This document shows, piece after piece, positions 10,196-61,029 of a DNA stretch of 64,000 nt; the stretch's first letter is position 1, and each line of letters begins with the position of its first letter. The stretch lies in the IMG/VR virus record IMGVR_UViG_3300035447_000008; one strand, given 5' to 3'. The position numbers were made by a program, and so were the translations under genes. The notes beneath the pieces are model-generated. The model did not search any database. It worked only from the letters and a program-made list of their open reading frames with translations, and was not told the DNA's origin. This DNA is from an uncultured virus (IMG/VR IMGVR_UViG_3300035447_000008). Lineage: Duplodnaviria > Heunggongvirae > Uroviricota > Caudoviricetes.

Positions 10196-11875
10196 TTAAA
10201 AGTTCATAGCTTTTGATTCTGGATAGTAAATCCATCCTTCGTCATCAGGAACAACGTGCAGCCTTCCATCTTCAAGCTGAAGCATCGTGTCACAAACCCC
10301 TAGCTCTCCCCATTCTCTGTCCTTGAGGATTTTGGTTCGGACCCGGCCACGGGTTTCATCTGGTAGCACCTCATTCTCAAGAGCAACAATACAGCTGCTC
10401 ATTTGTTCAATACCAGATGAGCCACGAAGAAACTCCTTCCGAACTTGTCTCCAATAGGCTTTCGGCTCTTCGCCCTCTTTAAGCTTAGGCCCATTGTCCT
10501 CGACCCTCTTAAGGTGACAAACAGCGTGAATAGTCACTTCATTGTTTGTCATAAAAGCGGCCAGCTCTTCATAAAGCATGTCGATATCTTTGCGTTCGTT
10601 GTTGCTCTCCAAGCCCGCTACCACCATTGAAATGTGGTCAATAAAGATGTGTTCACACCCGCAAATAAAATGCAAATACTTAATCTGCTGCATAAGCTTG
10701 TCAACTTTCATAGAACCAAAGTGGTCTAAAAAGTAGGTCTTGCCGTTAGAGATAACCTTATCCTTAGCTTCAAGGATTTGTTCTCGTGTAGCAACAGACA
10801 AGGGATTCTTTCGGAAATCTGGTAGACGAACACCAAGCTCCAAAGCAACCAAAGACTGTTGTGTTTTCTTAGTTGGCTCTTCTAGAAAGATAAAACCCAC
10901 CTTGTATCCAGCCGCAACCAACTCCCATGCAATTTCACGATTCAGTGTAGACTTACCCACCCCACTAAATGCAGTGTAGGTAATTAGCTCGTTACCTGTT
11001 CGAATTCCGTGAAGCTTTTCCATAAGCTTAGGATATCGTTCAATGTAATGCCCTTCACGCAAAGGTTCAAGCAAAGAATCAATATCAACATCATCGCCAC
11101 AAATAATCTTCTCTGGGCTATATTTCTCCAGCCCGAAGGCCAGAATCTTGCCAAGTTCTGAAGCATAGCCTTGCAATACACAATCACGAGCATCCTTTAG
11201 GTTATGCGGGTGTGTGATTGTATAAATATTGTCGGACAACAGAAGACTTGCCACTTCTTCTTTTGCTTCCTTCCCCTTAAGAATATTCTTCTTAAGCTCC
11301 TTGGGTGTAGCAGAGTCGGAGTCGAACGCCAAAACAATATCAGAGAACGATTGAACAAACTCAAGATTATGCGCCACGGACTCTGCTGCATTTGCTGTGC
11401 CCATTGAAATAGACACAACGCTTGGTTCAATCTTTCCTTCATACTTGGTTCCACGAAGGCTTTCAAGGATCGCTCGGCGGGTTGCCGGAACCTCTTCCTC
11501 TCCTTCAACAATAATCAGCTTACGACCACCTTTCGGTGTCTGTGGCTGACCAAACATCTGGGCATTGATTTTAACTGTACCAACAACAGTAAAATGAAAA
11601 TCGTGGTCTTTTGGAACTGTCCAGTCTCGCTTTTTAAACCCAGTCAACTCTCCCGATTTGCTATAATATGGGAAGTATGTGGCTTCAATTGTCTTACCAT
11701 CCTTGGTACTGACACAAGATCGAATCTCATAAAACTCCGCATCTTCTTTAGTCAGTCCGCGTTCAGGGACTGGGAGACACTTGTACTTAAGAACATCTTC
11801 CAAGCTCTCTTTAGCAAAAACACTCTCACTTTCTCGCATCTTATCTCCTCGTTTATATTTTCGTTGGTATGTCAC
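10196..11875 (-). CDS. T7 gp4-like TOPRIM primase / DnaB-like helicase, no N-terminal Zn finger
   Basis: IVEGEEE, AFDSD, KDARD; Walker A AFSGVGKST, FLEE, IFIDH, CHLKR, LRGSSGIEQ, KDREWGELG. Confidence 0.95.
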   Translation of the reverse strand: MTYQRKYKRGDKMRESESVFAKESLEDVLKYKCLPVPERGLTKEDAEFYEIRSCVSTKDGKTIEATYFPYYSKSGELTGFKKRDWTVPKDHDFHFTVVGTVKINAQMFGQPQTPKGGRKLIIVEGEEEVPATRRAILESLRGTKYEGKIEPSVVSISMGTANAAESVAHNLEFVQSFSDIVLAFDSDSATPKELKKNILKGKEAKEEVASLLLSDNIYTITHPHNLKDARDCVLQGYASELGKILAFGLEKYSPEKIICGDDVDIDSLLEPLREGHYIERYPKLMEKLHGIRTGNELITYTAFSGVGKSTLNREIAWELVAAGYKVGFIFLEEPTKKTQQSLVALELGVRLPDFRKNPLSVATREQILEAKDKVISNGKTYFLDHFGSMKVDKLMQQIKYLHFICGCEHIFIDHISMVVAGLESNNERKDIDMLYEELAAFMTNNEVTIHAVCHLKRVEDNGPKLKEGEEPKAYWRQVRKEFLRGSSGIEQMSSCIVALENEVLPDETRGRVRTKILKDREWGELGVCDTMLQLEDGRLHVVPDDEGWIYYPESKAMNF

Positions 11876-15418: not shown

Positions 15419-15708
15419 TCATTTTAGCTCAAAACCTGTCTGATTAAGGAATTCTACAAGCCGTTTCGCCAACCTGTAGCTCTGCTGATCTTCTACAAAA
15501 CGATTACCGTCTTCTGGCGTCCAACCGTGCAAGACCTCCCTTGTACTGGCGAAGGGGGTAGCAGAGTAATCTGGTTTAAAACCCTAAGCACATTCTCACC
15601 ATCATAACAAACCACCGTACCATAATACTTACCAACCAACGGGGCCAAGGCCCACAGTCGACCCGAGTCTGCTTTTTCTTCATGCTCAACCCGATTGATC
15701 GTTTCCAT
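15419..15708 (-). pseudogene. Frameshifted small gene (possible -1 programmed frameshift or 1-nt deletion)
   Basis: Zero frame stops at 15493. The -1 frame from T_TTA_AAC (15574-15580) reads FKPDYSATPF...TGFELK to TGA at 15419, overlapping the next ATG. Confidence 0.6.
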
Positions 15709-16075
15709 TTTCTCTCCTAGCCTCTTCGGCTTTCTGTTGTCGATGGGCATATTCTACATCAACATCTCAGAAAGCATAATTGTAAATTTCTATCGAAAGG
15801 GTAGAGGGTGATAGAGGAAATTGTAGGAGGTGGTGTGTTGACATTTAGGGGAGGATGGGTGGAGAATTGGTGGTGATTTTATAGGCAGTTTTATGAATTT
15901 GTGTTCTGGGTTTTTCTCTGAAACCCTTGCAGCACTAAGGCTGGAGAGCATTTTATTGTAGATTTTAACCCCATCCCGGTACTAAGGCTGGGTGGAAATT
16001 TGTAATACGCGGCCTGAATGTAAAGATTGTGTAAAGATGGTTGCACATACATTTTTCCGTGGTACTATTCACCCA

Positions 16076-16520
16076 TAGATTCAAAGAGGCGTTTCGGCAT
16101 GGTTCCCTCGGTTCAGCGACCAAAAGCAAAACCTGACACAAACCGATTTGTTTAGATTGCACGGAAGCAATTGTTGAGACAAATGACGGATACTGAAAAG
16201 TTAGTGCTGGCAATGACGACCTCTGTCAACCAGTGACCTGCATAATGGAATCTCGAAAGAGAAGGCCCGTAAGAAAAGAAAGAAATTTGTTTTCTGCCTG
16301 TTTGACGCGAATACCTGAGACAGTCGTAGCGTCTTATAGTGGTGAGGGTTAAGTCACCAAGGGAATGCCACCTACGGGCAAGGTGGTTAAGGCAATGCTG
16401 TGTGCCTTGAGAGATAGAATCTTGTTCTCCTTCTGCTTTACTGAGCAGATGTGATTATCCTTAGAATACTGAGTGTATTCAAGTGGGCGCATTGGTGCCT
16501 GCTGGGTAGTTGCAGGGAAT
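16076..16520 (+). ncRNA. Putative highly structured non-coding RNA or long leader
   Basis: Follows TTGCAC-N16-TACTAT (16041-16068); about 10 consecutive hairpins including TCTC-GAAA-GAGA; no plausible plus-strand ORF. Confidence 0.55.
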
Positions 16521-16558
16521 GAGAGAGGGTAGGTTTATCTAAAATTTAAGGAGATGGA

Positions 16559-17299
16559 GTGGATTATAGAAAGCACTATGCAAAGTTAATTTCTACAAGG
16601 ATTAACCTAAAAAGAGAAAAGTCAAAGGCAGATTATTACGAGTGTCACCACATAATTCCTAGGTGTCTTGGAGGGAGTGACGACAAAGATAACTTAATTC
16701 TCTTAACTGCAAGAGAACATTTTATTGCGCACCGACTTTTGAATAAGATGCACCCAAACGAGAAAGGGCTTTTGTGGGCTGTTTTGTTTTTGTGTGGTAA
16801 ATTCTCAAAATCTAATGACACCCGAATAACCAATAGGGTGTATGAAAAGTTGAGGCGCGAATCCTCCGAGCAGAGGATTAAACAAGCTGAACACGAAGAT
16901 TGTTTGCCGATTATGATGAATTTTAAGGTAAAGAGGGAAATTTGCAACACCCTCCGTCCCGTTCAGCGCATGGGAGAGAAAATAAGTAAGAGACAGCTTA
17001 CGTCCATAAACCTTTTATTGGGCAACCTGATAGGAGCAGCAATGTTAGATTGTAGCCTAACATACCCAAGGAGTAGAAGTCTCGTTTTTAGCAACAAAAA
17101 AGTCTCTGTTCACTCTATACTTCGCGCCGAGGAAATTTTGTTGCGTCTTGGGTATATAGAGTCCGTTCTAATAGACTCCACAAGCCCACTAGCTAAGAGG
17201 AAAAGGTGCAAGGTCACGCCATCGGGTAAGTTACTTCTCGATTTTGAAGCGTGTTCAGTGGCTTGTAAAGAGGAGATGGAAAGGTGCCTAGCTTCGTAG
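16559..17299 (+). CDS. HNH endonuclease (T4 Mob-like N-terminus) fused to a winged-helix-like domain
   Basis: YECHHIIPRCLGGSDDKDNLILLTAREHFIAH; C-terminal EILLRLGYIE..KVTPSGK. Confidence 0.9.
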   Translation: MDYRKHYAKLISTRINLKREKSKADYYECHHIIPRCLGGSDDKDNLILLTAREHFIAHRLLNKMHPNEKGLLWAVLFLCGKFSKSNDTRITNRVYEKLRRESSEQRIKQAEHEDCLPIMMNFKVKREICNTLRPVQRMGEKISKRQLTSINLLLGNLIGAAMLDCSLTYPRSRSLVFSNKKVSVHSILRAEEILLRLGYIESVLIDSTSPLAKRKRCKVTPSGKLLLDFEACSVACKEEMERCLAS

Positions 17300-17439
17300 T
17301 GGCAGAGCGACATGAAGAGCTTTTGATTCAGACAATGGGCGATTGCTTTCGTAAGCGTTTTGGGGTTGACACGTTGGTGCCAGTGACTGTAAGCTTCAAA
17401 CAAGACGGGACAGTGTATAAGAACCACATTTTGGCGTAG
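17284..17439 (+). CDS. Small hypothetical protein (below ORF-track cutoff)
   Basis: GAGGAG RBS, GTG start, MPSFVVAERHEELLIQ...NHILA. Confidence 0.5.
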   Translation: MPSFVVAERHEELLIQTMGDCFRKRFGVDTLVPVTVSFKQDGTVYKNHILA

Positions 17440-17521
17440 GAGAGAAGTCCTTACAATCGTAAGGAAAGCATGTAACATCCTTGAAAATTGACAATATCCG
17501 TACGAACGTGAGGATTTAAAG

Positions 17522-17857
17522 ATGAAAATTCTAGAAGACAAAGGATATAAATGCTGGAAAACTGACCAAAACGAATACAGCACCACAAAACATTATCAGC
17601 GACGTGTTGATAGGGACGCTTGGTTTGATGCTCCGCTGTGCCGTTGTAATGAGAAGTTGTGTATTAACATCGATGAGCATCAATTCTCAGTTGGTGAGAT
17701 TAGCGGACACTCGTTCACTGTAAGTATTTGTGCAGAGGGCGAGGATGGAGACTGGTGCGATATCAAGATTTACGGTATCAAACCTGATGAGATTGAGAAA
17801 AAGATTGACAGCTTTGAAGACAAGGTGTTGAATATGTGGAAAGCATTCAACGAGTAA
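17522..17857 (+). CDS. Hypothetical protein
   Basis: ORF with GAGGA RBS. Confidence 0.75.
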   Translation: MKILEDKGYKCWKTDQNEYSTTKHYQRRVDRDAWFDAPLCRCNEKLCINIDEHQFSVGEISGHSFTVSICAEGEDGDWCDIKIYGIKPDEIEKKIDSFEDKVLNMWKAFNE

Positions 17858-18120: not shown

Positions 18121-18744
18121 GTGCGTAAGAAAAAGAAATTAGTGTGTGGTGTTGGTTGGAACGATGCTGACTACCAGATAACAGAACAACAGGTCACAAT
18201 TGATGAGTACGGTGGGAAGAAGAAGATTACGTGGATGTGCCCGTTCTACTGGAAATGGAAAAGCATGTTGCAACGGTGTTATTCCCCTAAACTACAAGAA
18301 AGAAGACCGACCTACGTTGGTTGTTGTGTTTGCGAAGAGTGGCTTACATTCTCTAATTTCAAAGCTTGGATGGAGGTACAAGATTGGGAGGGTAAGCAGC
18401 TTGATAAAGACTTGCTAACTCCGGGAAACAAAGTATATTCTCCAGAAACATGCGTATTTGTAGACAAACGGGTTAATCTATTTCTAATAGAGTGCTCCGC
18501 TACCCGAGGGGGGTGCATAATTGGTGTCTGCTGGCATAGAGGGGCTAATAAATTTCAGGCGCTGTGTGGCGATGGATCAGGAAAGCAGAAACATCTCGGT
18601 TGTTTTAACACAGAACTCGAAGCTCACAAAGCATGGCTTGCTTTTAAGCTTGAACAAGCTAAAATTCTTGCTGCCGAACAAACAGACACCAGAGTAGCAA
18701 AGGCTCTTGTTGATCGTTATGAGAACTACGATCTTCAAGAGTAA
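18121..18744 (+). CDS. HNH homing endonuclease (LDKD type, AP2-like C-terminus)
   Basis: WKSMLQRCY..VCEEWLTFSNFKAWM..LDKDLL..YSPETC; paralog of 52167-52754. Confidence 0.9.
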   Translation: MRKKKKLVCGVGWNDADYQITEQQVTIDEYGGKKKITWMCPFYWKWKSMLQRCYSPKLQERRPTYVGCCVCEEWLTFSNFKAWMEVQDWEGKQLDKDLLTPGNKVYSPETCVFVDKRVNLFLIECSATRGGCIIGVCWHRGANKFQALCGDGSGKQKHLGCFNTELEAHKAWLAFKLEQAKILAAEQTDTRVAKALVDRYENYDLQE

Positions 18745-18944: not shown

Positions 18945-20552
18945 GTGAGTCGATTTGAGTGTGAAATTTTAGAAAGTGTTAGTGGTTCTCGAGCAGATAT
19001 TAGCCCGTTTTCGCGGGAAATCGTTGTTATTAGTTTATTTGATGGTATAAGTTGTGGTTTGCAAGCCCTTAAAAATCTAGGGTTTACTAATATAAAATAT
19101 TTTGCCTCGGAAATTGAACCAAACGCAATTAAAATCAGTGAGAAAAATCACCCCGAGATAATTAGACTTGGTGATGTGAGGACAGTTAAAATTAATGGTA
19201 ATTATATTGAGTCTGAAAATGGTAAATGGCGATTGGGGGACGAGAATTACTACCAGAAGGTTGACCTTATTTTGGCAGGTTCACCTTGCCAGGGCTTTAG
19301 CTTTGCTGGGAGTGAATTGAATTTCAATGACCCTCGATCTGCACTATTCTTTGAGTTCGTGAGGATTAAAAAAGAAATTGAGGATTACCAAGGAAGCGTT
19401 GATTTTCTACTCGAGAATGTAAAAATGCGTGCGGAATTTGAAGACGTAATAACACACCATCTTAAGACTTGGCCGGTAAAAATTAATTCAAGGGCTTTTA
19501 CGGCACAAAACCGAGAGCGATATTACTGGTCTTCCTTGCTACAAACAACAATTTATGGCGAAAAAGACATAAAAGATTTTGAACATTCGCCAAAGATTGT
19601 AGACATTTTGGAAGATAAAGATTATAAAGGGGTGTGGACTTGGCCGAGAGGTTATAACAAAGGCGGTACTCGATTAGTGGACAAAATGCCTTGTATTACT
19701 ACAAGCAGTTGGCAGCATAATTTCCTAGTGGAAAAGGAAAACGGAGAGCGCAGAAAGTTTACACCGATCGAGTGCGAAAGGGCACAGGGTTTTGGATTTA
19801 TTAAGAAAGAGGTAGAAATTTTTACATGTTTAGACCAAGCAAAGAACTTTGTAAGTGTGGTAAAGAAAAATCCCAAGTTGCTAAAACTTGTTTTGAATGT
19901 AGAAGAAACAGAACTACAAGAGTTTGTAAAGGCTGTGGGGTACAATACTCATCAAAAGTTTCTGCTAACAAAATATACTGCTCCAGAAAGTGTAGGTATG
20001 GGGATACCGCTACAAACAAAGCCTCGCAACCAACAAATAGAACAGTTTTTGAGTGCAGACAGTGCGGAACAGAAACAACCGTGCCTCTTTCAAAGAACAG
20101 GGGAGGTTTCTGTAGTTCAGGGTGTTTCTATTTGTATAATAGAGGGGAAAATAGCGCAAATTGGAAGGGGGGAGTTACCTCAGAAAGACAGTCTTTTTAC
20201 TCAACAGACACTTGGAAAGATGCAATTAAATTTGTTTGGAAACGAGACAATGCTACATGTCAACGATGCGGAATCCATTTTGAACATGATGATGGACAGC
20301 AGTTCCACATTCACCACATTGTCCCGTTTATCTATGAAGAGTACAGATCAGATTTTGAGAATTTGCTACTGGTTTGCAGAGAGTGTCATTACTGGATACA
20401 TTCCAATGCAAACGGGGAAAGCCTGTTTATCTCTGAGCCTGTATGATGGGTACACTGCGGGAATATCAGATAATCAGCGATATAAAGTATTGGGGAATGG
20501 TTGGACAGTTCCTGTCATTGAGAGAATCTTATCAGCTTTATGTGGCGATTAA
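18945..20552 (+). CDS. C5-cytosine DNA methyltransferase carrying a 217-codon in-frame insertion
   Basis: Motif I SLFDGISCG, IV GSPCQGFS, VI ENV, VIII QNRER, IX TPIECERAQGF, X LGNGW; insertion at 19794-20444. Confidence 0.9.
   Translation: MSRFECEILESVSGSRADISPFSREIVVISLFDGISCGLQALKNLGFTNIKYFASEIEPNAIKISEKNHPEIIRLGDVRTVKINGNYIESENGKWRLGDENYYQKVDLILAGSPCQGFSFAGSELNFNDPRSALFFEFVRIKKEIEDYQGSVDFLLENVKMRAEFEDVITHHLKTWPVKINSRAFTAQNRERYYWSSLLQTTIYGEKDIKDFEHSPKIVDILEDKDYKGVWTWPRGYNKGGTRLVDKMPCITTSSWQHNFLVEKENGERRKFTPIECERAQGFGFIKKEVEIFTCLDQAKNFVSVVKKNPKLLKLVLNVEETELQEFVKAVGYNTHQKFLLTKYTAPESVGMGIPLQTKPRNQQIEQFLSADSAEQKQPCLFQRTGEVSVVQGVSICIIEGKIAQIGRGELPQKDSLFTQQTLGKMQLNLFGNETMLHVNDAESILNMMMDSSSTFTTLSRLSMKSTDQILRICYWFAESVITGYIPMQTGKACLSLSLYDGYTAGISDNQRYKVLGNGWTVPVIERILSALCGD
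19826..20446 (+). CDS. HNH endonuclease with N-terminal Zn-ribbon repeats, nested out of frame in the methyltransferase
   Basis: Own RBS (AAAGAGGT); repeated CxxC..CSxxC; NWKGG; RDNATCQRC..HIHHIVP..NLLLVCRECH. Confidence 0.92.
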   Translation: MFRPSKELCKCGKEKSQVAKTCFECRRNRTTRVCKGCGVQYSSKVSANKIYCSRKCRYGDTATNKASQPTNRTVFECRQCGTETTVPLSKNRGGFCSSGCFYLYNRGENSANWKGGVTSERQSFYSTDTWKDAIKFVWKRDNATCQRCGIHFEHDDGQQFHIHHIVPFIYEEYRSDFENLLLVCRECHYWIHSNANGESLFISEPV

Positions 20553-25281: not shown

Positions 25282-25515
25282 ATGAACACTCGCACAGTTT
25301 CGGAAGCAACCTTCAAAGCTTTTGAGAAATCTAATCACTGTAAACAAGCCATGCTTCAAGCAGAAAAAGATATCGAATCTTCTCATAACTTGGGTCAATT
25401 CAATAATGGTGACCCAAACCACCCAATGTACAACAACAATTATAATTATGCAACACAAGAATATAAGCTTTTTGGGTATGAGCAAGAAGATTTCATGTCT
25501 AAGCAGTATAAATAA
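25282..25515 (+). CDS. Early hypothetical protein
   Basis: Own promoter and RBS. Confidence 0.75.
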   Translation: MNTRTVSEATFKAFEKSNHCKQAMLQAEKDIESSHNLGQFNNGDPNHPMYNNNYNYATQEYKLFGYEQEDFMSKQYK

Positions 25516-25585
25516 AACTTGCAACGCCCTGAAATGGGCTATATAGTGGCCCCATCGAAAGGCAAACCAGACAGGAATCGAGAAA

Positions 25586-25813
25586 ATGAAACAAGGGCTA
25601 GTTCTAAAAGCAAAGCAAGAATTTACAATGAAGAAAGAAGGTAGCCGTGGTCGAGCTATGCACATTAAAGTCGGTGACGTTTTTATCATCACTAGCCCAG
25701 ATTATAACAATAAAGAAGCAAGCTTGATCGACCGTTACAAGTCTGCTAGTCTTAACCAAGGGTACAAACTGCTGAACTCGGACATTAATAACCTTTTCGA
25801 ATTGGTAGGGTAA
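25586..25813 (+). CDS. Early hypothetical protein
   Basis: Own promoter and RBS. Confidence 0.7.
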   Translation: MKQGLVLKAKQEFTMKKEGSRGRAMHIKVGDVFIITSPDYNNKEASLIDRYKSASLNQGYKLLNSDINNLFELVG

Positions 25814-25978
25814 AATATGGAAAACGCAACACATACCGATGAAGAAGGCAACATGTACAAAGTGCTGGGCGATAAACCACAAGAGTTTTGTGTTTACTTT
25901 TGGAACTGGTCAAGTAAACAGTGGTTTCAAGACTTAGGAAAAGATTTTAGTCATCTTATTAAAATTGCTTGACAAGAT

Positions 25979-26004
25979 GCCCGGCATAGTCCGGGCTTTC
26001 TTTT
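25979..26004 (+). terminator. Rho-independent terminator
   Basis: GCCCGG-CATAGT-CCGGGC followed by TTTCTTTT. Confidence 0.8.
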
Positions 26005-26552
26005 ACCCATCATAAATCTTTCCAATCGCCCACTTGAGAAGCGAAGCGACGAAAGGCTTGCAATTTATTGCGAGCACCCTCCCTCCTCGGACGTGTCTCC
26101 ATGTGGCTATATTCTCACAGCCCCACACACGATGCAAGCTTTTTCTTTCTAAAATTTCTCAATTTATTTTCACTTTCCCTATTGACACCCCGCCTCAGTC
26201 TAGTAGGATGAGCACATCCACAAACAGAACACCAGCGGAGTTACACAGAATGGACGAGAAAGAATTTAAACAACGGTTTGCAGAGACCTTTGATTTAAGG
26301 GTGACAGTGTTTGACCAATCCGGTTCTACTGTCTTAGAGGTGGCCATTGTAGACAAGGAGGGGGAGATTGTGATTCAGTCCACATCTTCCGCCATCTGTA
26401 CCACACAACCAGATTAAAATTTCACCCTCTCTTGCAAGCTTTTGGCACGTCCGTTGCTTGTAAAAATAATTCAAATTTTCTTCAATTTCTTGTTGACTGA
26501 CTACACACATCCCCTTATACTGAACCCAACAAAGCAGACAGGAATCAAAGCC

Positions 26553-34293: not shown

Positions 34294-36761
34294 TCAACTC
34301 TTTTTCTGTGGTGCAAGCTTTTTGAAGGCGTAATCAAGGATGCTTTCCAACACCCAAATTCCCCACCATACAGGGAATATAATGACTACAGCAATGTGGA
34401 AATACACATACACTTCCTTTACAGAAAGCGTTGTATTGCGATATTCCTCACGATAGAGCTGGTACACTCCTTGCTGTCCAAGAAACTTCCATGTTGCGAA
34501 CAGAAGTAGGGCAGAGAGGATAAGGCCGATAACGTAGTATGTAATTAGGAATGTCATTTATTTCTCCTCAATGAATCGTTGCTTTTGAATATGGAACATC
34601 AAAGAGCGAAGCTCTCTCCTCTTGGAACACTTCTTCCTCTTGTTCTTCCTGATACCCTACAGACATCATCTCCTCATAATACAAATCAACATAGGAAATA
34701 AGAACACCCAATTGTGTAAATGGATGGTTAATCTCTCCCCCTGTCAAGCGGGAATAAGCTGTCTGGACACTCTTGAATAGAATTGCGTAGTCATGTAGCT
34801 CACGCTTTATACTCTCCATATCCGGTGTACCATCAGGATTTTCTAGAATATCTTTCCAGATGCTATCCCACACGCTGTCAATCTTCTCTTTTGGAGTCAT
34901 CATTCCACCTCCACCGTATGAATAAATATTGTGTCCGTGTATTCTAGCAGATCATCCTCTTCCAAAGCAAGCTCTTGAAGCTTATCTTCTCGCCATTGTT
35001 CGTAAGAGGCCGAATCAGCCCATATATTCCCAAGATGCTCTTCCATCATCTCATCAAACATCTCTTTGTCTTGGGCATTAAATTGAGCTACACGCCCCAC
35101 TTTGTTGTTGTGTCGAGAGACGAAAGCAAGAGCCTTCTCAAATGTAGAGAAAACCCTTACATCGTTTCTTACATTCACTACATGTACATCCATCTTAGCT
35201 CACCAAATATACAGACAAGCCATAGCGGTTGATGGCTTGTTCTAGTGTGCAATAAACATTCTTTCCGTTGACAGGGGCTTGTGTGTAGAACGTCCCATCT
35301 CGTTTTACAACAGTGAAAGCTGGAGCATCATCAGCTACGCTGTATTTGACAAAACGAATGTTATCAAGGATTACGCCTGTGTCAAGGTAGAATATTTGTG
35401 TCCCGTTGGGAACACGTACACGAATTTTATTGCTCATCTTCTTTCTCCACTTCAATTTGTTCAATAAGCCATGCTTCAAGATAGTCTGTGTCTACATTGA
35501 AGCGTTCTTCACAATATTCCTTTGACGGATTGAATACAATCTCATCAAGCTCGTCGGTATTATCATCGAAAATATCGGCTCGTGCAACATTCCATTCAAT
35601 TTGTGTGTATCCGTAGAAATCATCAGGATTGTCAGCAGAGAAATCAGCCTCTTGTTTATGATAATACACCACATCAAGCACAAGCCCTGCATAAAGCTCT
35701 TTTGCATTCTCTTGAAATGCTACAACATAACAAAATTCTTTAGACATTATGTATGTTCCTCCTCATATCCACGATCTTGCATCTCAGCCCAAATATTAAA
35801 GCTCAGACGTTCCAGTGTATCATCTGTGCATTCCTCAAGATTCTCGATAATCAGGAATACAGCATCTTGAATTTCTTTCTGCGTAATCAACTCTATTCCT
35901 CCATTTGCCGAAGCATAATCTCCCCTTTCATTGAATACATAATGTCTACAAGCATTTGCTCTGTAAGCTCATCACTACGGAACATAATAACATCTGCTGC
36001 TGTCGTTGTGTCACACATATTCAAAAGATATTTGTAATTCTCTGTAATTTCTAAGCAGTCAGTCATGATTATTCCTCCCACACTGCTTCAAGTAATTTAT
36101 CTTTAGCAGAAACATCTAGGTAGTCTGCTGTCAGAATAATCCTGTTCATCCGACGATTGTTTGTAGCCCAAGCAGCATCAAGCCTTTGTTTAAGCTCTGC
36201 TATCTCATCCATCAAAGCTCTACGCTCTGAATTTAATAGAATGTCTTCTTGTTTTTGTTCTTGCATTTTCTACCCTCCTATTGCTCGTTGTGAATCCCAA
36301 GAGAAGCATTCCCCTCAAATAATGCTTCAACTTCTGCCTCCATCGTAGCAAGCTCTTCAGCCTGTTGCAACAGCTTTTTAGTGAGCTGGATGCTGATGAG
36401 AAGTTCTTTCTGACGTACATGCCTTACACACCCCTCAGATTCTTTAGCTGAAGATTCTACGAGAGTGTTAAGAACATAGCTCAGAGCTTCCACTTGAGAA
36501 GCTGCGTTGTAACGTGTGTTCATCTCTTTATCCTCGATTCTGTGTATGATAGACAATCTGCCACACAGCTTTACCATTCTCATCTACGCCAGATTGCACA
36601 GTGAAAGCAGCAGGACGTGCCCATTTAGCAAAGTCAAGCAGTGCATCTAGGTTGGTGAACAGTCGTTCAATTTGAGAAGGAGATTGTACTTGCCCTTCTA
36701 CAAAATTTTCTTGAATTTGTTCTGTCATCTTAATTGATTCTCTCCGTTTTGTGATTGCCAA
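34294..36761 (-). CDS. Run of about 9 small hypothetical genes (34294-34557 membrane, 34568-34903, 34900-35193, 35195-35437, 35427-35747, 35893-36067, 36069-36266, 36278-36523, 36528-36728)
   Basis: Tightly packed ORFs with RBSs. Confidence 0.7.
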
Positions 36762-38354: not shown

Positions 38355-38800
38355 TAATCTTTCACCGAAATGCAGTTACTCACCCGGCAGTAAGAACCTC
38401 GACGCCCAACATCAATAAAAGCCTCCCCGAATTGGAAGAAGTCGCACTCCTTAACATCTTCTGGGATCGTAAAGATTTCTCCAGTCTTAGTGCATTTGTA
38501 CTTCTTACCTGCCCACTCTTGCTTGAACTCAAAATCTTCTACATCTTTGTGCATTTTCTTTTTTAGGGGAAAACCCCACAGCCATTGCAAAGCAAAGGCA
38601 ATTCCATGTAGAGCTTCTACAGCGTCCTCTGTGTTATTAAAGAACATATCTGGACGCGAAACAATCTGCTCACGCATCTTATGAAGCACGTCAATTGCAA
38701 TACAATCTTCTTCAGACAACCCTTGTTTCTTTGCTAATTCTTTATTGTGTGCCATTACTCCTCCCGGTCCATTGTGACAATGATGTATCGCTCTGAGCAA
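38354..38800 (-). CDS. Hypothetical protein
   Basis: ORF; true start probably MAHNK after GGAGGAG. Confidence 0.7.
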   Translation of the reverse strand: MLRAIHHCHNGPGGVMAHNKELAKKQGLSEEDCIAIDVLHKMREQIVSRPDMFFNNTEDAVEALHGIAFALQWLWGFPLKKKMHKDVEDFEFKQEWAGKKYKCTKTGEIFTIPEDVKECDFFQFGEAFIDVGRRGSYCRVSNCISVKD

Positions 38801-48326: not shown

Positions 48327-49151
48327 CTATTTAATTATTTGCTCAAGGCGGTGGGAAGTGCTTTCTTCAAGCATAGCACGAAAGACCGGGAGCTGTTTGT
48401 TCATTTGCTCATACATACCAGCATCCCTTAGATTATCCCTCACCACCTCAACAGATTTGATAGCACCATCCACCATCCCATCCACCTCATCCTTACATAC
48501 CACCCCACACCGAATATCGCTGATAATTTTCTGCATCTCTTCCTCATCTACCAACAATGCTTCAGCGAAGTTTCCAAATGTCTGATACTTAGACACGGAG
48601 TATGCAATACGGAGGATATGGATCAAATTCTTGTTATCGTAGCCATACTTGTCGAAAAAGTTCTTGGTCCATTCTGTACACTTATACAAACCAGACTTCT
48701 TCTGATTTTGCATGCCGAGACAGGCACTAACAAGGCTTGGCCAGATCATTGCAACAATCTCCTCACGCTTTGCTTCGAGGATAGGTATAACCGACGAAAA
48801 GGTTTGTAGCTTGTACTCAGTGAACAGAATTTCAAGGTTGTTGAAATTCCCCTTGAAGAAGAGTGCTTCAAAATCCTTGAATGGTTTTACAGAACACTTC
48901 TCTACCGTATCGCCACACGGAATATCAAGATCAAACGCAAGCTTCGTTCCACGAATCAACGACCTCACTGTTGGCACCAAAACGAGCTTACTGTCAACAT
49001 CGCTGGTCGCTGTGTGGACATTGTAGTTTTGACTGCCTTGCAGATAAACCCCTTCTACAATATAGTCACGGCTGTGGACAAGCCCCCGATCACGCATCTG
49101 CTCAATAGCAGAGCGTTGGTGTTGATCTAGCCGTTCAATAAATTTACTCAT
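48327..49151 (-). CDS. Pol-beta superfamily nucleotidyltransferase (RlaP/Nuc-transf-like)
   Basis: LQGSQNYN..TSDVD, KGN.N.LEILF, YDNKNLIHILR. Confidence 0.85.
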   Translation of the reverse strand: MSKFIERLDQHQRSAIEQMRDRGLVHSRDYIVEGVYLQGSQNYNVHTATSDVDSKLVLVPTVRSLIRGTKLAFDLDIPCGDTVEKCSVKPFKDFEALFFKGNFNNLEILFTEYKLQTFSSVIPILEAKREEIVAMIWPSLVSACLGMQNQKKSGLYKCTEWTKNFFDKYGYDNKNLIHILRIAYSVSKYQTFGNFAEALLVDEEEMQKIISDIRCGVVCKDEVDGMVDGAIKSVEVVRDNLRDAGMYEQMNKQLPVFRAMLEESTSHRLEQIIK

Positions 49152-49397
49152 TTGGTTTCCCCTCGTGTGTTGTTAACGTAAGGGAATGATAGCTTGCCTT
49201 GCTCCTGCACGTCAAGCAAATCTTTCAGAGAAAGCTAAGAAAATTTATTTGTTTTGTGTGTTGACAGGAGGGGAGGGGTGGGATTACTATTGGTGGACCA
49301 GAGCAAAGAATAGCTCTTAACATTTGAGAATGAAAACGCTCCAGCCTTAGTGCCACGGGGCTTAGAGGGGTATTATGGTTGACTATCTTGTAACGAG

Positions 49398-50759
49398 GTG
49401 TGGATGAAGAGAGATTTATGGAGATTAGAGAAGAGAGAAAGAAGTGAAATACAATCCACTACCACTCACTTCAATATCCACTACAACCAGAGGTCTAAGT
49501 ATAAGCACATCCTTACCAAGCTAGAGGATGAGATAGGCTTTGGTTACAGAAAAGAGATTCTTGCTCTCATCACCAACACAGCCCGTGCTATCAAGTACAG
49601 AGCCATTGGGTTGTCTGTCCCCAGAGACTTTGCTCCATACAAGGGAAATCCTCAGAAGATTTCTCATAAGCGCATGGTGGCTTTGTTGGATATCCTTGAA
49701 ACTGGTGGGTACGTTGATCTACTCATAGGCGGGATTGCTGATTGGAAAGAAGGTGTAATGGTAGGCTCTCTTTGTATGTTCAAAGAATCTTGGTTATCTC
49801 TTTTCTTTGGTGTAGACGTGTCAGACGAGGTTGATCCTCTCCCGCTTGTGGAGATTAAAGATCGCTCATCGGGAGCGCTGAAGTCTACGAGAGGACACAC
49901 CGGGGTTAAGAAGATTGGCGCCTATATGGAAGCATTCAACACTATTTTGCAAAACACAACGATTACCAAAGGAAGCCTTGTCTATTCAGCACAGCAATAC
50001 AAGCGCGTGTTTTCAGATAAGATTGGTTTTGGTGGTCGGCATTACAACACTGTCGGAGGTGTGCAGGTTATGAACAGCGATGAGAGAAAGAAATTGGAAT
50101 TAGATGGCAGTCCTGTAGCAGAGCTTGACTTCAAAGCAATGCACGCATCTCTTTTGTATGAAGAGGAATATGAATTTAATGCGGATGTTATTGATTCTTG
50201 GATTGAAGATGAATGGGGTGGGGCATACAACCCCTATGGAGCCAAGATGCCGTTCCTTGAAGTAGATCAGAGTAAAGTGAATTATTTCAGGGAGAAGTAT
50301 AACAAGCCCACCTACGACCCAATTAGGAATCTATGTAAGCACTCATTGATGGTGTGCTTAAACGAAGATAGTTATCGCGGTGCATTCACTCAAGTGACGG
50401 GTGAGGTGGTTAGAGACAAAGAGATGTGGGGAACAGATCAAGAGAAAGATTCTAAATTCTTTGGTTTATATGTCTCGGATCGCTTTCCGGGGCACACAGT
50501 GTGCCAAGCCGTTGTAGCCCACAATAAACCAATAGCTCATCACTTCTTCAGTGACCGAGGTGTGCAACTTCAGTATCTCGATAGTGAGATTATTGCTGAT
50601 GTGATTAACCGACTGATTTGTGAGAAGGAACCATTGCTTCCAGAGCATGACAGTGTTATTGTAAAGCAGGAAGTCAAAGAGAGGGTTATGCAGTATATGA
50701 GAGAAGCCTACAAGGAAGTGATGGGCAATGATAAGTTCTGCTATATTGAGGAGAAATAA
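49398..50759 (+). CDS. Compact PolA/T7-RNAP-related polymerase (TV-Pol-like) with N-terminal winged-helix-like domain
   Basis: GGRHY; motif A ELDFKAMH; motif B RNLCK; LQYLDSEI; motif C EHDSVIV; no exonuclease domain. Confidence 0.8.
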   Translation: MWMKRDLWRLEKRERSEIQSTTTHFNIHYNQRSKYKHILTKLEDEIGFGYRKEILALITNTARAIKYRAIGLSVPRDFAPYKGNPQKISHKRMVALLDILETGGYVDLLIGGIADWKEGVMVGSLCMFKESWLSLFFGVDVSDEVDPLPLVEIKDRSSGALKSTRGHTGVKKIGAYMEAFNTILQNTTITKGSLVYSAQQYKRVFSDKIGFGGRHYNTVGGVQVMNSDERKKLELDGSPVAELDFKAMHASLLYEEEYEFNADVIDSWIEDEWGGAYNPYGAKMPFLEVDQSKVNYFREKYNKPTYDPIRNLCKHSLMVCLNEDSYRGAFTQVTGEVVRDKEMWGTDQEKDSKFFGLYVSDRFPGHTVCQAVVAHNKPIAHHFFSDRGVQLQYLDSEIIADVINRLICEKEPLLPEHDSVIVKQEVKERVMQYMREAYKEVMGNDKFCYIEEK

Positions 50760-50930
50760 ATGAAAATCTATATTGTTCTGGAACAAAGCCCAAGAGGGAC
50801 AAGAATCTCGAAGGTGTTTGCTAAAGCCACTGATGCGGTTGCTTGGAGGACTGAGCTTCAAGGGTCTGATGAGTATTTGGACTTCGATAGCGCTTATCAA
50901 TATTTTGTAGAAGAGTGGGAGGTCGAATGA
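50760..50930 (+). CDS. Small hypothetical protein (IYIV..KVF family)
   Basis: GAGGAG RBS; manual translation MKIYIVLEQSPRGTRISKVFAKA...EEWEVE. Confidence 0.7.
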   Translation: MKIYIVLEQSPRGTRISKVFAKATDAVAWRTELQGSDEYLDFDSAYQYFVEEWEVE

Positions 50931-51509: not shown

Positions 51510-51599
51510 ATGTATACAAAGTGTTGACAGAATTGTAAATACTTGTTAAAATAACCGCATCGAGGAGTGGGTGGTCCCTTCCTTAAAGGAATTTAAAAT

Positions 51600-51983
51600 A
51601 TGAGTAAACAAGAAATTGACTCTCGGGAGATTCCCGACAAGCTAGGTAGGACCGGAGCAGCGAAAGGTGGGAGAAAACCCGGAACCAAATCTAGCCGTAC
51701 ACCTCGTCAAAGAAAATTGGCCGAGGTGCTTAACAAACTTTCTCCTGTAGTAGCTAAAGCTCTTGCTAAAGCTGAAGCAATTCTGGATGCTGATCTTGAA
51801 AAGAGTGGTGTAAGTGCTACAGTGCAGTTGCAGGCAGCTAAGCTTGTTATTGATAAAGCTATCGAGCTTACAAACGAATGCTACAAACCTGACACAGTTT
51901 CAGGTGAAGCACCACAAGATGACGATGGTGAAGAAGAGACAGGAGCTGTCTTGAGCTTTACTGTTGTTGATGGAAAGAAATAA
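51600..51983 (+). CDS. terS: Probable terminase small subunit
   Basis: GGRKPG N-terminal motif, helical core with QAAKLVID, acidic tail; upstream of the tRNA-terL block. Confidence 0.6.
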   Translation: MSKQEIDSREIPDKLGRTGAAKGGRKPGTKSSRTPRQRKLAEVLNKLSPVVAKALAKAEAILDADLEKSGVSATVQLQAAKLVIDKAIELTNECYKPDTVSGEAPQDDDGEEETGAVLSFTVVDGKK

Positions 51984-52166: not shown

Positions 52167-52754
52167 ATGCAAAAAAGAAACAAACTATTTTGTGGTATTG
52201 GGTTAAACGATGCCGAGTATGTTGTTAGTAAAGTTGCACGAGATTTGCAAGGAAAGAGGCTCGTCCTTTGGACTTGTCCCTATTATATTAAATGGACAAG
52301 TATGATAAATAGGTGCTATTCCGAGTCAGAGTTAAAAAGAAGAACAAGCTATGTTGGGTGTTCAGTCTGTGAAGAGTGGTTAACCTTTAGTAATTTCAAA
52401 GCGTGGATGGAAAATCAGGATTGGGAGGGTAAAGAGTTAGATAAGGATTTGCTTGTTAAAGGAAATAAGATTTATTCTCCCGATACTTGCATATTTCTTT
52501 CTAAACGCCTAAATAGCTTTCTTACGGAAAGCACGAAAACAAGAGGCGACTTACCAATAGGTGTTCGAAAACACAGAGATAAATTTATTTCCAGTTGCAG
52601 AGCAGATGGAAAACTTGTTTATCTCGGTCTATTTGAAACTCCTGAAGAGGCGCATAAAGCTTGGCTTAAATTTAAAGCCAAGGAAGCAAAAAGGTTGTCA
52701 GAGCAAGAGACTGACGAGCGAGTTATAAATGCTCTAATTAGCCGGTACATTTAA
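52167..52754 (+). CDS. HNH homing endonuclease (LDKD type)
   Basis: WTSMINRCY, VCEEWLTFSNFKAWM, LDKDLL..YSPDTC. Confidence 0.9.
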   Translation: MQKRNKLFCGIGLNDAEYVVSKVARDLQGKRLVLWTCPYYIKWTSMINRCYSESELKRRTSYVGCSVCEEWLTFSNFKAWMENQDWEGKELDKDLLVKGNKIYSPDTCIFLSKRLNSFLTESTKTRGDLPIGVRKHRDKFISSCRADGKLVYLGLFETPEEAHKAWLKFKAKEAKRLSEQETDERVINALISRYI

Positions 52755-53109: not shown

Positions 53110-53197
53110 GGTTAGTTGTCCGAGAGGCTTATGGATGTGGTTTGCTAAACCATTGAGTGTAAAAGCTCCGTAGGTTCGAATCCTACACTAACCGCCA
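53110..53197 (+). tRNA. trnS: tRNA-Ser(GCT)
   Basis: Acceptor GGTTAGT/ACTAACC-G-CCA; anticodon arm GTGGT-TTGCTAA-ACCAT; long variable arm; GTTCGAATC T-loop. Confidence 0.92.
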
Positions 53198-53202
53198 ATC
53201 GA

Positions 53203-53279
53203 AGGGCGTTGGCGCAACTGGACAGCGTAAGGAGCTTCTACCTCCTTGGTTACAGGTTCGAATCCTGTACGCTCTGCCA
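53203..53279 (+). tRNA. trnR: tRNA-Arg(TCT)
   Basis: Acceptor AGGGCGT/ACGCTCT-G-CCA; anticodon arm AGGAG-CTTCTAC-CTCCT; GTTCGAATC T-loop. Confidence 0.92.
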
Positions 53280-59194: not shown

Positions 59195-60552
59195 TGGCAC
59201 ATGAAATCTATCGTCTGAGGGAGAAATTGTGCAACACTCCGCACCTTATTCATCCCTCCTCGTTTGAAACGATTATTGACTACGTTGAAAAGCGTTGTGA
59301 AGATGGGGAACCGGGAGAAGCTGTTCAAGCCACTTCTCGCTACTCTTACAACCAAGACCTTCAGGTAGCAGTATTGAATATTGATGGTCCTCTGACATAT
59401 AAGCCTGTCACTATGATGGGCTTTGATTGTGGTGGAACATCCTACCAACAACTTAAAGAAGACTTTAGCTATCTTGTAGAAAGCGGAGTTAAGACAGTTG
59501 CTATGAATATCTCTAGTGGTGGTGGTGAAGCTTATCAAGTGTTTGCTACTGCTCGGTATATGAAAGAGTTGGCTGTTAAGAATGAAGTCAAGCTTCTTTC
59601 GTTTGTGGATGGTATGGCAGCAAGTGCCGCATATGCTCTGGCCTCTATTGGTGATGAGATTATCCTGAACGAAGGCTCTGAAGTGGGTTCGATTGGAGTA
59701 GTTGTGAGGCTCCTTAATAACTCCAAACAGCTTGAGAAAGAAGGTGTGCAACGCATCTTCGTAACAGCAGGAGATAGCAAAGTTCCTTTCGATAAGGAAG
59801 GTAACTTCCGCGAAGGTTTTCTTGCTGACCTACAAGAGAAAGTAGATTTTCTTTATGACGAATTCACAGAGTTTGTGGCAACAAATCGTTCCCTCTCTGT
59901 CGATGCGGTGAGAGCCACAGAAGCAAAAACTTTCCTTCCTGAGAAGGCTTTGCAACTTGGTCTGGCCGATTCTGTAATGAACTCGGAAGAGTTTTATACT
60001 TATTTGGCTGACTCAGTACAGCGAAAGGAAAACACTATGCTTAAAACTAAACTGTTCGGCATGAACAATAAAGAGGAAACAATTGATATGTCTGTAAATA
60101 TGGCACAACTGGAAGAGCTGCAAACTCAGCTTTCCCAATATGAAGCACAACTCTCCACCCTGCAAGCATCTCTTGAAGAAATGGGCGGTGTTAAGGCTGC
60201 TCTTGAAGCTGCTCTGGGTGAAAAAGAAACCGCTCTGGCTGATGCTCAAGCTCTGGTTGCAAAACTGGAAGAAGAGAAAGTAGAGCAGAAATTGCAAGCT
60301 CGTAAAGACAAGCTGGCTGCTGTCACTTCCGCTGACCAAGTAGAAGCTCTGGCTGCTTCCCTGTCTTCTCTGGACGACGTTGCATTCTCCACTGTTGTGG
60401 GCGCTATGGCTGCTCAAGCTAAAGCTCTTGAAAACAGTGAGATGTTCACCGAGGTCGGTGACCAAGGCGTAGAGGCTTCTGTTGAAGAGACCGCTGCTCC
60501 GAAAACTTCCACTACTGATGCGCTGATTCAAGCCCGTCTTCAAAACCGTTAA
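59194..60552 (+). CDS. Head maturation protease (S49/SppA-like) fused to coiled-coil scaffold
   Basis: SSGGGE, AASAAYALAS, VGSIGVV; C-terminal heptad region. Confidence 0.92.
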   Translation: MAHEIYRLREKLCNTPHLIHPSSFETIIDYVEKRCEDGEPGEAVQATSRYSYNQDLQVAVLNIDGPLTYKPVTMMGFDCGGTSYQQLKEDFSYLVESGVKTVAMNISSGGGEAYQVFATARYMKELAVKNEVKLLSFVDGMAASAAYALASIGDEIILNEGSEVGSIGVVVRLLNNSKQLEKEGVQRIFVTAGDSKVPFDKEGNFREGFLADLQEKVDFLYDEFTEFVATNRSLSVDAVRATEAKTFLPEKALQLGLADSVMNSEEFYTYLADSVQRKENTMLKTKLFGMNNKEETIDMSVNMAQLEELQTQLSQYEAQLSTLQASLEEMGGVKAALEAALGEKETALADAQALVAKLEEEKVEQKLQARKDKLAAVTSADQVEALAASLSSLDDVAFSTVVGAMAAQAKALENSEMFTEVGDQGVEASVEETAAPKTSTTDALIQARLQNR

Positions 60553-60570
60553 TTTAAAGGAATTTAAAAT

Positions 60571-61029
60571 ATGCCTTTCGTAACTATGCCTTACTCCAAG
60601 CGCCTGTCTGACCTCGTTGTTCACGAAATTGATCCGAGCGTTGGTTATGGCCGTAAATGTGTAAACGTCACCCCTCCGGCTGGTGGCGCTGCTGTTGAAA
60701 TCGGCACCGTTGTTTACCGTGCTAAGGGTACTGACCCTGAAGGTGCTTACGCAGTTCTGAGTGCTGCTGCTCAAATCGCAGAGACCAACGAGTTTGCTGT
60801 TATTTACGGTGACCACTACAGCTTCAATCCTTCGTTTGTTCCGCGTGCTATTGCTGCTGGTCAGTACAACGCTGTTGGTTTTGTTGGTCATTCTGGTGGC
60901 CTGCAACTGAAAGAATACTACATTCGCCAGTTCGCTGACACCCTCGGAACCCCGCTTACCGATGCTCAGTTTGCTTCCCTGAAAGAAGTGCTGGAAAAGC
61001 AAGGTATCGTGGTTCTGGAAACCAAGTAA
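60571..61029 (+). CDS. Head decoration / capsid stabilising protein
   Basis: Between protease and major capsid gene; strong RBS and highly biased codons. Confidence 0.8.
   Translation: MPFVTMPYSKRLSDLVVHEIDPSVGYGRKCVNVTPPAGGAAVEIGTVVYRAKGTDPEGAYAVLSAAAQIAETNEFAVIYGDHYSFNPSFVPRAIAAGQYNAVGFVGHSGGLQLKEYYIRQFADTLGTPLTDAQFASLKEVLEKQGIVVLETK

Follow-up and report, generated by a model that had tools for sequence, protein, structure and literature searches.

The divPolA2 proteins, described in 2024 from barbaviruses and related phages, are a divergent, palm-containing variant of PolA that lacks an exonuclease domain. According to that description, genomes encode one to three such paralogs, in every case alongside a regular polymerase, and the proteins may act in repair or as RNA polymerases, a replicative function being judged unlikely (PMC11348598). 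TV-Pol proteins are marked by an arginine on a beta-hairpin, a pair of catalytic aspartates and, in the fingers, an RxxxK motif, and were proposed to be primases (PMC2579912), while CcPol-MP of SCCmec was shown to prime (PMC10061031). Among HNH endonucleases of the I-HmuI type, NixI of PLE nicks the DNA of the phage ICP1 (PMC9410903). Here, we analyze a 64,000-nt stretch of an uncultured virus (the window), which is the minus strand of 11788-75787 of the 90,069-bp record IMGVR_UViG_3300035447_000008, a record with direct terminal repeats. Two of its genes, encoding a polymerase (49398-50759) and an HNH endonuclease (16559-17299), share a protein domain and an upstream 15-mer. Sequence comparisons lead us to conclude that both genes belong to one kind of module, consisting of a sigma-70 early promoter with a G-rich spacer, a ~35-nt quasi-palindromic element and a divPolA2 gene, which is intact at 49.3 kb and which, at 15.8 kb, has been overwritten between 15874 and 17289. 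A preliminary description of the window recognized the shared features and missed that the loci are, as whole modules, paralogs of each other. This paralogy by itself accounts for the domain, the promoter block and the motif that they have in common, all of them inherited.

The gene at 49398-50759 (plus strand) encodes 453 amino acids (aa) and matches phrog_4756 (E 5.4e-69 in PHROGs); a Pfam scan of this open reading frame (ORF) gave zero matches. We collected 69 homologs and derived a family profile from the 42 that were aligned. The profile matches 25481-26317 of MG592441.1 (E 3.6e-12 and 1.1e-11), inside the gene of AUR84708.1, a published divPolA2 representative (PMC11348598). Because of this match, we assign the window's polymerase to divPolA2, a family that is thus already in the literature. 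Residues invariant across the 42 aligned sequences include R214, D244 (in ELDFKAMH), R310 and K314 (in RNLxK), and H417-D418 (in HDSVIV). We searched the AlphaFold2 model of the protein (pLDDT 92.9) against 48,161 chains with Foldseek and VIA-align. Residues ~145-453 match family-A DNA polymerases with Z scores from 13.3 to 9 (best match: rmsd 4.2, 243 aligned), and the core also matches the RNA polymerases of yeast mitochondria (Z 11.8), T7 (Z 10.6) and N4 (Z 7.9). On this basis, residues ~146-453 are taken to form a minimal family-A polymerase core. The profile found nothing under E 1.4 among the sequences of solved structures.

The protein resembles divPolA2 as described in PMC11348598 in several respects. 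It keeps the palm and fingers motifs A, B and C, it has no 3'-5' exonuclease domain, it carries an N-terminal globular domain instead of the canonical thumb, and it coexists with a regular family-A DNA polymerase (PolA, assigned by its match to PF00476, at 8051-10135). As published for divPolA2, its family has one to three paralogs per genome and matches the structures of the mitochondrial and N4 RNA polymerases. Matches to the family occur in 118 of 50,697 phage records, among groups of phages that infect Vibrio, Aeromonas, Pseudoalteromonas, Shewanella and Pseudomonas. A second polymerase copy was looked for in the window's genome and not found.

The enzyme had been called TV-Pol-like, which holds only as a distant likeness, the protein being placed more precisely in divPolA2. 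As the likely TV-Pol we took a 506-aa ORF beside transposases in Microcystis phage LMM01, which we presume to be the TV-Pol of PMC2579912; against it, the polymerase profile gave E 0.012 and hhalign gave E 0.0084 with a probability of 4.7%. The residues that mark TV-Pol are present in the window's protein, where R214 lies on a hairpin (strands 200-206 and 212-219) and is accompanied by D244, R310-K314 and D418. Like TV-Pol and CcPol-MP as they are described (PMC2579912, PMC10061031), it is a minimal family-A core without a nuclease domain, carried by a virus or mobile element beside the main replication genes. Unlike them, its gene has no adjoining D5-like helicase, resolvase or SSB-like partner among the close neighbors scanned; these comprise a nucleotidyltransferase-like ORF and small ORFs only, with no integrase or transposase either. 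Moreover, its N-terminal domain is a mixed alpha/beta winged helix, whereas those of the TV-Pols are described as all-helical (PMC2579912).

This winged-helix domain (WH; about residues 37-145, nt 49506-49832, plus strand) was delimited from the AlphaFold2 model and its structure matches. It had been aligned by eye with the C-terminus of the HNH protein, and profile comparisons show that the two are homologous. A direct BLASTP comparison of the window's two proteins is not significant (E 2.7), and hhalign of the two family alignments is weak (E 0.029), in exactly the register proposed from inspection. The connection is made by a second kind of divPolA2 in related phages, which we call b-type, the window's own being a-type. 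The profile of the HNH family's C-terminal domain matches four b-type paralogs with a probability of 97.2% (hhalign, E 2.9e-11, 98 columns) and the a-type family with E 0.0019. In turn, the b-type and a-type families match each other over 350 columns that include the N-terminal domain (99.8%, E 1e-27).

A structure search of both domains against the 48,161 chains agrees with a winged-helix fold in both proteins, with Z scores of 4.9-5.5 for polymerase residues 37-145 and 5.0-6.2 for HNH residues 123-245. Eight PDB entries (7qep, 7pwf, 1xmk, 3j7a, 8auv, 3cjn, 7wze and 9qe0) appear in both top-50 lists. The order of secondary structures is identical in the two domains (helix, strand, helix, beta-hairpin), these elements being modeled at residues 51-66, 71-73, 90-102 and 106-115 of the polymerase and at 144-162, 166-170, 184-197 and 200-221 of the HNH protein (pLDDT 77.6). 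When the C-terminal 122 residues of the HNH protein were used in an exhaustive HMMER search (E<=0.001), nine further proteins were found, zero of them polymerases. In seven, of 228-276 aa, the match covers the C-terminal part; of the other two, one is 162 aa long and the other, of 1211 aa, comes without a matched stretch. A word-based homolog search with the C-terminal part returned the self-match only. In the HNH-family alignment, which holds the window's protein and eight relatives, the HNH domain is present in seven of the eight relatives; a locus search with one member (P0077) yielded 13 loci that match the HNH domain only.

The origin of the shared domain becomes apparent when the 15.8-kb locus is compared with its counterpart in the closest relative, genome G001, whose polymerase is 99% identical to the window's. 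By blastn, G001 shares 15778-15874, which contains the promoter and is ~90% identical up to 15874, and 17289-17439, and holds 1226 other bases between them. Behind the same promoter, these bases encode a 422-aa phrog_4756 protein that is, by sequence, a second, b-type divPolA2 (BLASTP against the window's polymerase, E 9e-13). The window instead contains a 1414-bp cassette (15875-17288, plus strand, by the blastn breakpoints), which replaces the 5' leader and 373 codons of this paralog. The paralog's last 49 codons remain as a remnant (17290-17439, codons 17290-17436, plus strand) that begins directly past polymerase motif C and is out of frame with the HNH ORF; the small ORF that covers it (17284-17439) is identical at 43 of 49 positions to residues 374-422 of the G001 paralog (tblastn E 4e-26). 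A wastewater metagenome contig likewise joins 15874 to 17289 with 1228 other letters between them and, since it bridges the same breakpoints, the cassette and intact forms coexist in nature.

The cassette's HNH-WH protein (246 aa, 16559-17299, plus strand) combines an I-HmuI-type HNH nuclease domain at residues 1 to ~110 (PF01844, E 1e-5, 26 bits against a cut-off of 21.4) with a paralog-derived winged helix at residues 125-231 (nt 16931-17251, plus strand). The match to phrog_655 (E 2e-37) covers residues 1-133 only. Residues 36-126 of the G001 paralog match HNH residues 142-231 (BLASTP E 3e-6), and two of the nine aligned HNH-family proteins (P0077 and P0079) also carry the paralog's tail, fused in frame (E 7e-13). 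The preliminary description had proposed that the HNH fusion hijacked a targeting domain. The homology of its WH to that of the paralog, together with the intact paralog at the same locus in G001, supports this proposal. We conclude that the 15.8-kb locus is, by these comparisons, a second copy of the promoter-element-divPolA2 module, and that a cassette associated with a homing endonuclease has overwritten most of its b-type gene, the HNH nuclease of the cassette being fused to that gene's WH.

Like I-HmuI-type endonucleases, including NixI (PMC9410903), the HNH-WH protein has an N-terminal HNH motif (PF01844; phrog_655) and a modular C-terminal part that is predicted to bind DNA, and it is encoded by a free-standing gene at a fixed site, where close relatives (G001 and the metagenome contig) lack it. 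Unlike in that group, the predicted DNA-binding part is the WH of the replaced polymerase gene and not a usual endonuclease module. Within the cassette lies a portable noncoding module of ~530 nt with few ORFs (16017-16549, plus strand), which is 95-96% identical in four other viral contigs, where different ORFs follow. Contigs from two RNA libraries cover parts of 16021-16553 only and do not give the strand, the module's folding z score is -2.26, and a search of Rfam over 15600-17700 at E<=10 yielded nothing credible. The module may be a portable noncoding leader or an RNA that travels with homing endonuclease genes. One of the ORFs that follow such a module elsewhere (202 aa) has an N-terminus that looks GIY-YIG-like by eye and has no family match. 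As a separate observation, the promoter end at 15874/15875 is a recurrent breakpoint among metagenome and viral contigs; those that leave the window's sequence at 15874 continue with 28, 79 or 1228 other letters and rejoin it at 16017, 15945 or 17289.

Both loci carry the 15-mer GCACTAAGGCTGGAG noted at the outset, which is exact at 15932-15946 (plus strand) and 49339-49353 (minus strand), and the partial copy ACTAAGGCTGG at 15981-15991 is also present. The latter lies within a degenerate third half-element copy (15979-15993, plus strand, three mismatches), which is a direct repeat 47 bp from the second copy. Taken alone, an exact repeat of this length is unremarkable, since the window has 18 maximal exact repeats of at least 15 nt (compared to a mean of 4.25 and a range of 1-7 in 20 first-order Markov simulations). 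A copy with one mismatch occurs inside a coding region (38479-38493) without the other half of the element. The significance of the 15-mer rests on a sequence-only model, R1, which was derived from 23 aligned ortholog upstream sites with the 15.8-kb locus left out. Over the whole window and both strands, R1 finds three sites only. The first is the ~35-nt quasi-palindromic element of the intact module (49335-49374, plus strand; 21.9 bits, E 1.2e-5, as one of the 23 training rows), whose 5' half is the 15-mer at 49339-49353. The second copy of the element (15912-15953), which holds the 15-mer at 15932-15946, is found on both strands and scores slightly higher on the minus strand (13.6 bits, E 0.0057) than on the plus strand (10.0 bits, E 0.08). 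The third site is a weak partial match at 16000-16017 (4.9 bits, E 3.7); the degenerate half-element copy is not reported by R1.

Upstream regions of the orthologs are arranged as a ~35-nt block, a box ~10 nt later and then the ribosome-binding site. We applied R1 genome-wide (E<=1) to 24 related phage genomes with 33 divPolA2 genes, 27 of them a-like and 6 b-type. Among the 37 resulting rows, 26 lie within ~300 nt upstream of a divPolA2 gene (21 training rows and 5 others, including three b-type paralogs) and two are opposite-strand echoes of upstream sites. A targeted search of seven upstream regions that had no hit recovered four elements at E<=0.022 and a weak one at E 0.33, with none in the remaining two. 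The motif is thus conserved upstream of orthologs, a check that had been suggested, and also upstream of paralogs: the element precedes 30 of the 33 divPolA2 genes in the 24 genomes.

The orientation of the element relative to its gene is reversed in two relatives (G010-a and G003-b) and, by a small margin, at the window's 15.8-kb locus; the element of the intact G001 paralog has the sense orientation. RNA structures were considered as candidates and rejected. Folding of the polymerase leader has a z score of -0.37, RNAalifold finds 0 pairs in a consensus of the element from 23 sequences, and the named hairpin is paired in 58% of cells with a covariation score of 0.075, a value that 163 of 500 shuffles equaled or exceeded. 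Because hairpin covariation is absent and the orientation flips, we favor, from sequence patterns, a protein site on double-stranded DNA.

The promoter-like blocks seen upstream of both genes are each a 10/12 match to the sigma-70 consensus. The early promoter of the intact module, with its G-rich spacer (49255-49296, plus strand; TTGACA-18-TACTAT at 49261-49290), is paralogous to that of the second module (15832-15875, plus strand; TTGACA-18-GAGAAT at 15838-15867), and the latter is conserved in relatives with the intact paralog. In the window, the longer G-rich block pattern occurs at these two sites only (0 and 2 mismatches); the expected number of matches is 0.27, and 0 of 100 shuffles reached the 4 found. 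In the nearest named phage, Pseudomonas phage vB_PsaM_M1 (Ounavirinae, 89 kb), whose ortholog of the polymerase is 62% identical, the equivalent place reads TTGACA-16-TAGAAT. Between the element and the ribosome-binding site lies a conserved box, TTGACTATCT (49379-49388, plus strand), which in relatives reads TT(G/C)ACTATCT or TCCACTATCT. The box was considered as a repeated promoter and rejected, TT[GC]ACTATC occurring only 3 times in the window.

We propose a mechanism whereby the WH domain would recognize the element as a double-stranded DNA site, probably as a dimer. In the polymerase, the WH would anchor the enzyme at one defined position next to the gene that encodes it, where a strand could be started or extended. 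The same WH, as part of the HNH-WH protein, would aim the nuclease at such sites in rival genomes that keep the paralog, and targeting of these sites would explain both the spread of the cassette and its left breakpoint beside the element. We lean slightly toward accepting this account as a whole, with its paralogous modules, its WH-recognized element and its nuclease aimed by a captured WH. A wider reading is more speculative, and we think it less likely than not: divPolA2 and its upstream palindrome might form a self-contained initiation module, in which a family-A polymerase equipped with a WH site reader begins DNA synthesis next to the gene that encodes it, the early theta origins of ICP1-like and Felix-O1-like phages might be such sites, and HNH-WH nucleases might have stolen the site reader to attack and overwrite the modules of rivals.

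Several observations weigh against the proposed mechanism. Nine of the 37 element rows lie away from divPolA2 genes, one of them being the window's 15.8-kb locus, and four of the strongest eight second copies of the element have no polymerase remnant nearby. R1 finds no element at the ICP1 or Vibrio phage 1.063.O loci. The winged-helix matches are modest (Z 5-6), in a range that the search tool itself terms common. The identity of the two 15-mers (15/15 in inverted orientation) exceeds what simple descent predicts; gene conversion or selection for RNA pairing is a possible cause. Finally, near variants of the cassette lack the element copies. In two viral contigs (L118 and L121) and in a metagenome contig, 28 other letters stand where the window has 15875-16016, and in one contig with the HNH gene, 79 other letters take the place of 15875-15944. 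Given these variants, the HNH gene needs no copies of the element in cis.

A first alternative to the proposed mechanism is the one offered in the preliminary description, an origin module, which is plausible and to which we assign a clear minority of our confidence. The element would be a replication origin or initiation site, the WH would bring divPolA2 to this site, where the enzyme would either prime or elongate the transcript of the promoter, the HNH-WH protein would nick such sites, and the two elements that flank the central early region would be two start sites. Initiation at ColE1 and at the T7 primary origin relies on a family-A polymerase that extends a transcript begun at a nearby promoter. 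In the module, too, a strong promoter directly precedes a specific site, and its transcript could be extended by a family-A-type polymerase; the difference is that this polymerase would bear its own site-recognition domain. That the element directly follows a strong host-type promoter in almost every module, that its orientation varies, and that copies without a polymerase exist, as sites of action would predict, are all consistent with an origin, as are the proposed and demonstrated priming by TV-Pol and CcPol, respectively (PMC2579912, PMC10061031). The only outside hint comes from ICP1_2006_E, whose homolog lies at 59428-60612; an 8-min coverage peak in ICP1, reported "near the 60 kb position", marks an early origin (PMC7145576). 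This coincidence is coarse and concerns one phage, in a strain whose engineered deletion may shift the coordinates, and the ICP1 locus has no element by R1. The reversal of GC skew at both divergence points of the window is uninformative, since the skew tracks the gene strand, which switches at the same sites. Moreover, the description of divPolA2 considers it unlikely to be a replicative enzyme (PMC11348598).

Alternatively, the element could be an autoregulatory operator, through which the WH of divPolA2 represses its own synthesis from the leader, the 15.9-kb copy being a leftover of the lost paralog. In 30 of 33 genes, and separately for each paralog, the element follows the promoter and precedes the start codon; this layout, with a conserved box adjoining the ribosome-binding site, is what an operator would look like, and the 15.8-kb locus is indeed the leftover of a paralog module. 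The DNA polymerase of T4, gp43, binds a translational operator on its own mRNA. In both cases a polymerase gene has a conserved leader element near the ribosome-binding site, but here there is no RNA-hairpin covariation, the orientation flips and copies occur away from polymerase genes. The three reversed cases count against an RNA operator and not against a DNA operator. Strong copies with neither a polymerase nor a remnant (21.9-28 bits, in G003, G007 and G020) speak against an operator, a reading to which we give nearly the same weight as to an origin.

It is improbable that divPolA2 is a phage RNA polymerase and that the element and box together form its promoter. The structure matches to the mitochondrial, T7 and N4 enzymes (Z 11.8, 10.6 and 7.9), the fixed spacing of element and box upstream of the gene, and the earlier suggestion of such a role (PMC11348598) speak for it. 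However, one to three copies of the element per 90-kb genome are too few for a transcription program, the box occurs only three times in the window, and the element is reversed in three cases. At least as improbable is an antisense RNA, whereby a plus-strand transcript from the 15838 promoter would complement the divPolA2 leader and regulate its mRNA in trans. It would make sense of the exact inverted 15-mer, which is otherwise unaccounted for: the two leaders are perfectly complementary over 15 nt, and a second site pairs at 14 of 15 positions with two G-U pairs, two of its three differences keeping the pairing. But near variants of the cassette lack these copies, and the sense orientation of the element in the intact G001 paralog means that no such pairing would occur there. 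That the 15-mer, the promoters and the domain likeness are mere coincidences is hardly credible: the 18 exact repeats of at least 15 nt and the non-significant direct BLASTP would allow it, but R1 picks just these two loci in 64 kb (besides the 4.9-bit partial match, E 3.7), the locus is syntenic with an intact paralog, and the profile tests give E 2.9e-11 and 1e-27.

The window adds three things to what is published on divPolA2: the assignment of its N-terminal domain to a fold, since this domain matches winged helices in the window's protein; a conserved cis element that travels, with its promoter, alongside the gene and also occurs alone; and the capture and retention of that domain alone by a nuclease family, which amounts to a natural experiment. 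PMC11348598 (two versions), the sole work returned by a full-text search on 'divPolA2', contains neither the WH assignment nor the conserved element nor the nuclease capture. Capture of the domain points to where divPolA2 polymerases act, and the three additions together yield a concrete question, namely whether the WH binds the element and, if so, whether the element serves as origin, operator or promoter. That the ICP1 homolog coincides with the early origin of that phage (PMC7145576) suggests a possible bearing on how replication starts in a well-studied cholera phage.

The window's phage is of the Felix-O1-like (Ounavirinae) kind, with a genome of ~90 kb. Two blocks of leftward genes, one from 15750 and one at 29-49.15 kb, alternate with two blocks of rightward genes, one at ~15.8-29 kb and one from 49.4 kb. 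In the ORF layout, 16559-17299 and 49398-50759 are, as described before, each the first plus-strand ORF past a switch of gene strand. A DnaB-like helicase gene (10196-11875) follows that of the regular polymerase. Left of the intact module lies a divergent nucleotidyltransferase-like gene (48327-49151, minus strand; phrog_388 'nucleotidyltransferase', E 7.4e-15), with a leftward sigma-70-like promoter, TTGACG-18-TATCAT, at 49186-49215 (minus strand); vB_PsaM_M1 has other genes at this place. At the gathering threshold, Rfam reports two tRNAs only in the window, the adjacent genes for Ser (gct) and Arg (tct) at 53110-53279.

Among the stronger lone copies of the element, three, from related genomes, adjoin the gene of a P-loop (GSGKT) protein of 413-435 aa, phrog_2467 (L085 1592-2833, L066 1603-2877 and L078 1569-2876), which has no assignment in Pfam, PDB or NCBIfam and no counterpart in the window's genome. 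A few genes downstream of each divergence point, the window encodes one of two paralogous ORFs (18121-18744, 207 aa, and 52167-52754, 195 aa) that match the C-terminal half of phrog_953 'HNH endonuclease' (E ~1e-90). The ORF at 18945-20552 (535 aa) has a C-5 cytosine DNA methylase domain confined to residues 28-225 (PF00145, E 7.7e-28), its long C-terminal part being without an assignment. Of the exact repeats in the window, the longest is direct, 20 nt in length, at 51583-51602 and 60554-60573; also among the longest is a 19-nt inverted repeat at 34554-34572 and 50745-50763, the second copy of which overlaps the stop region of the polymerase gene.

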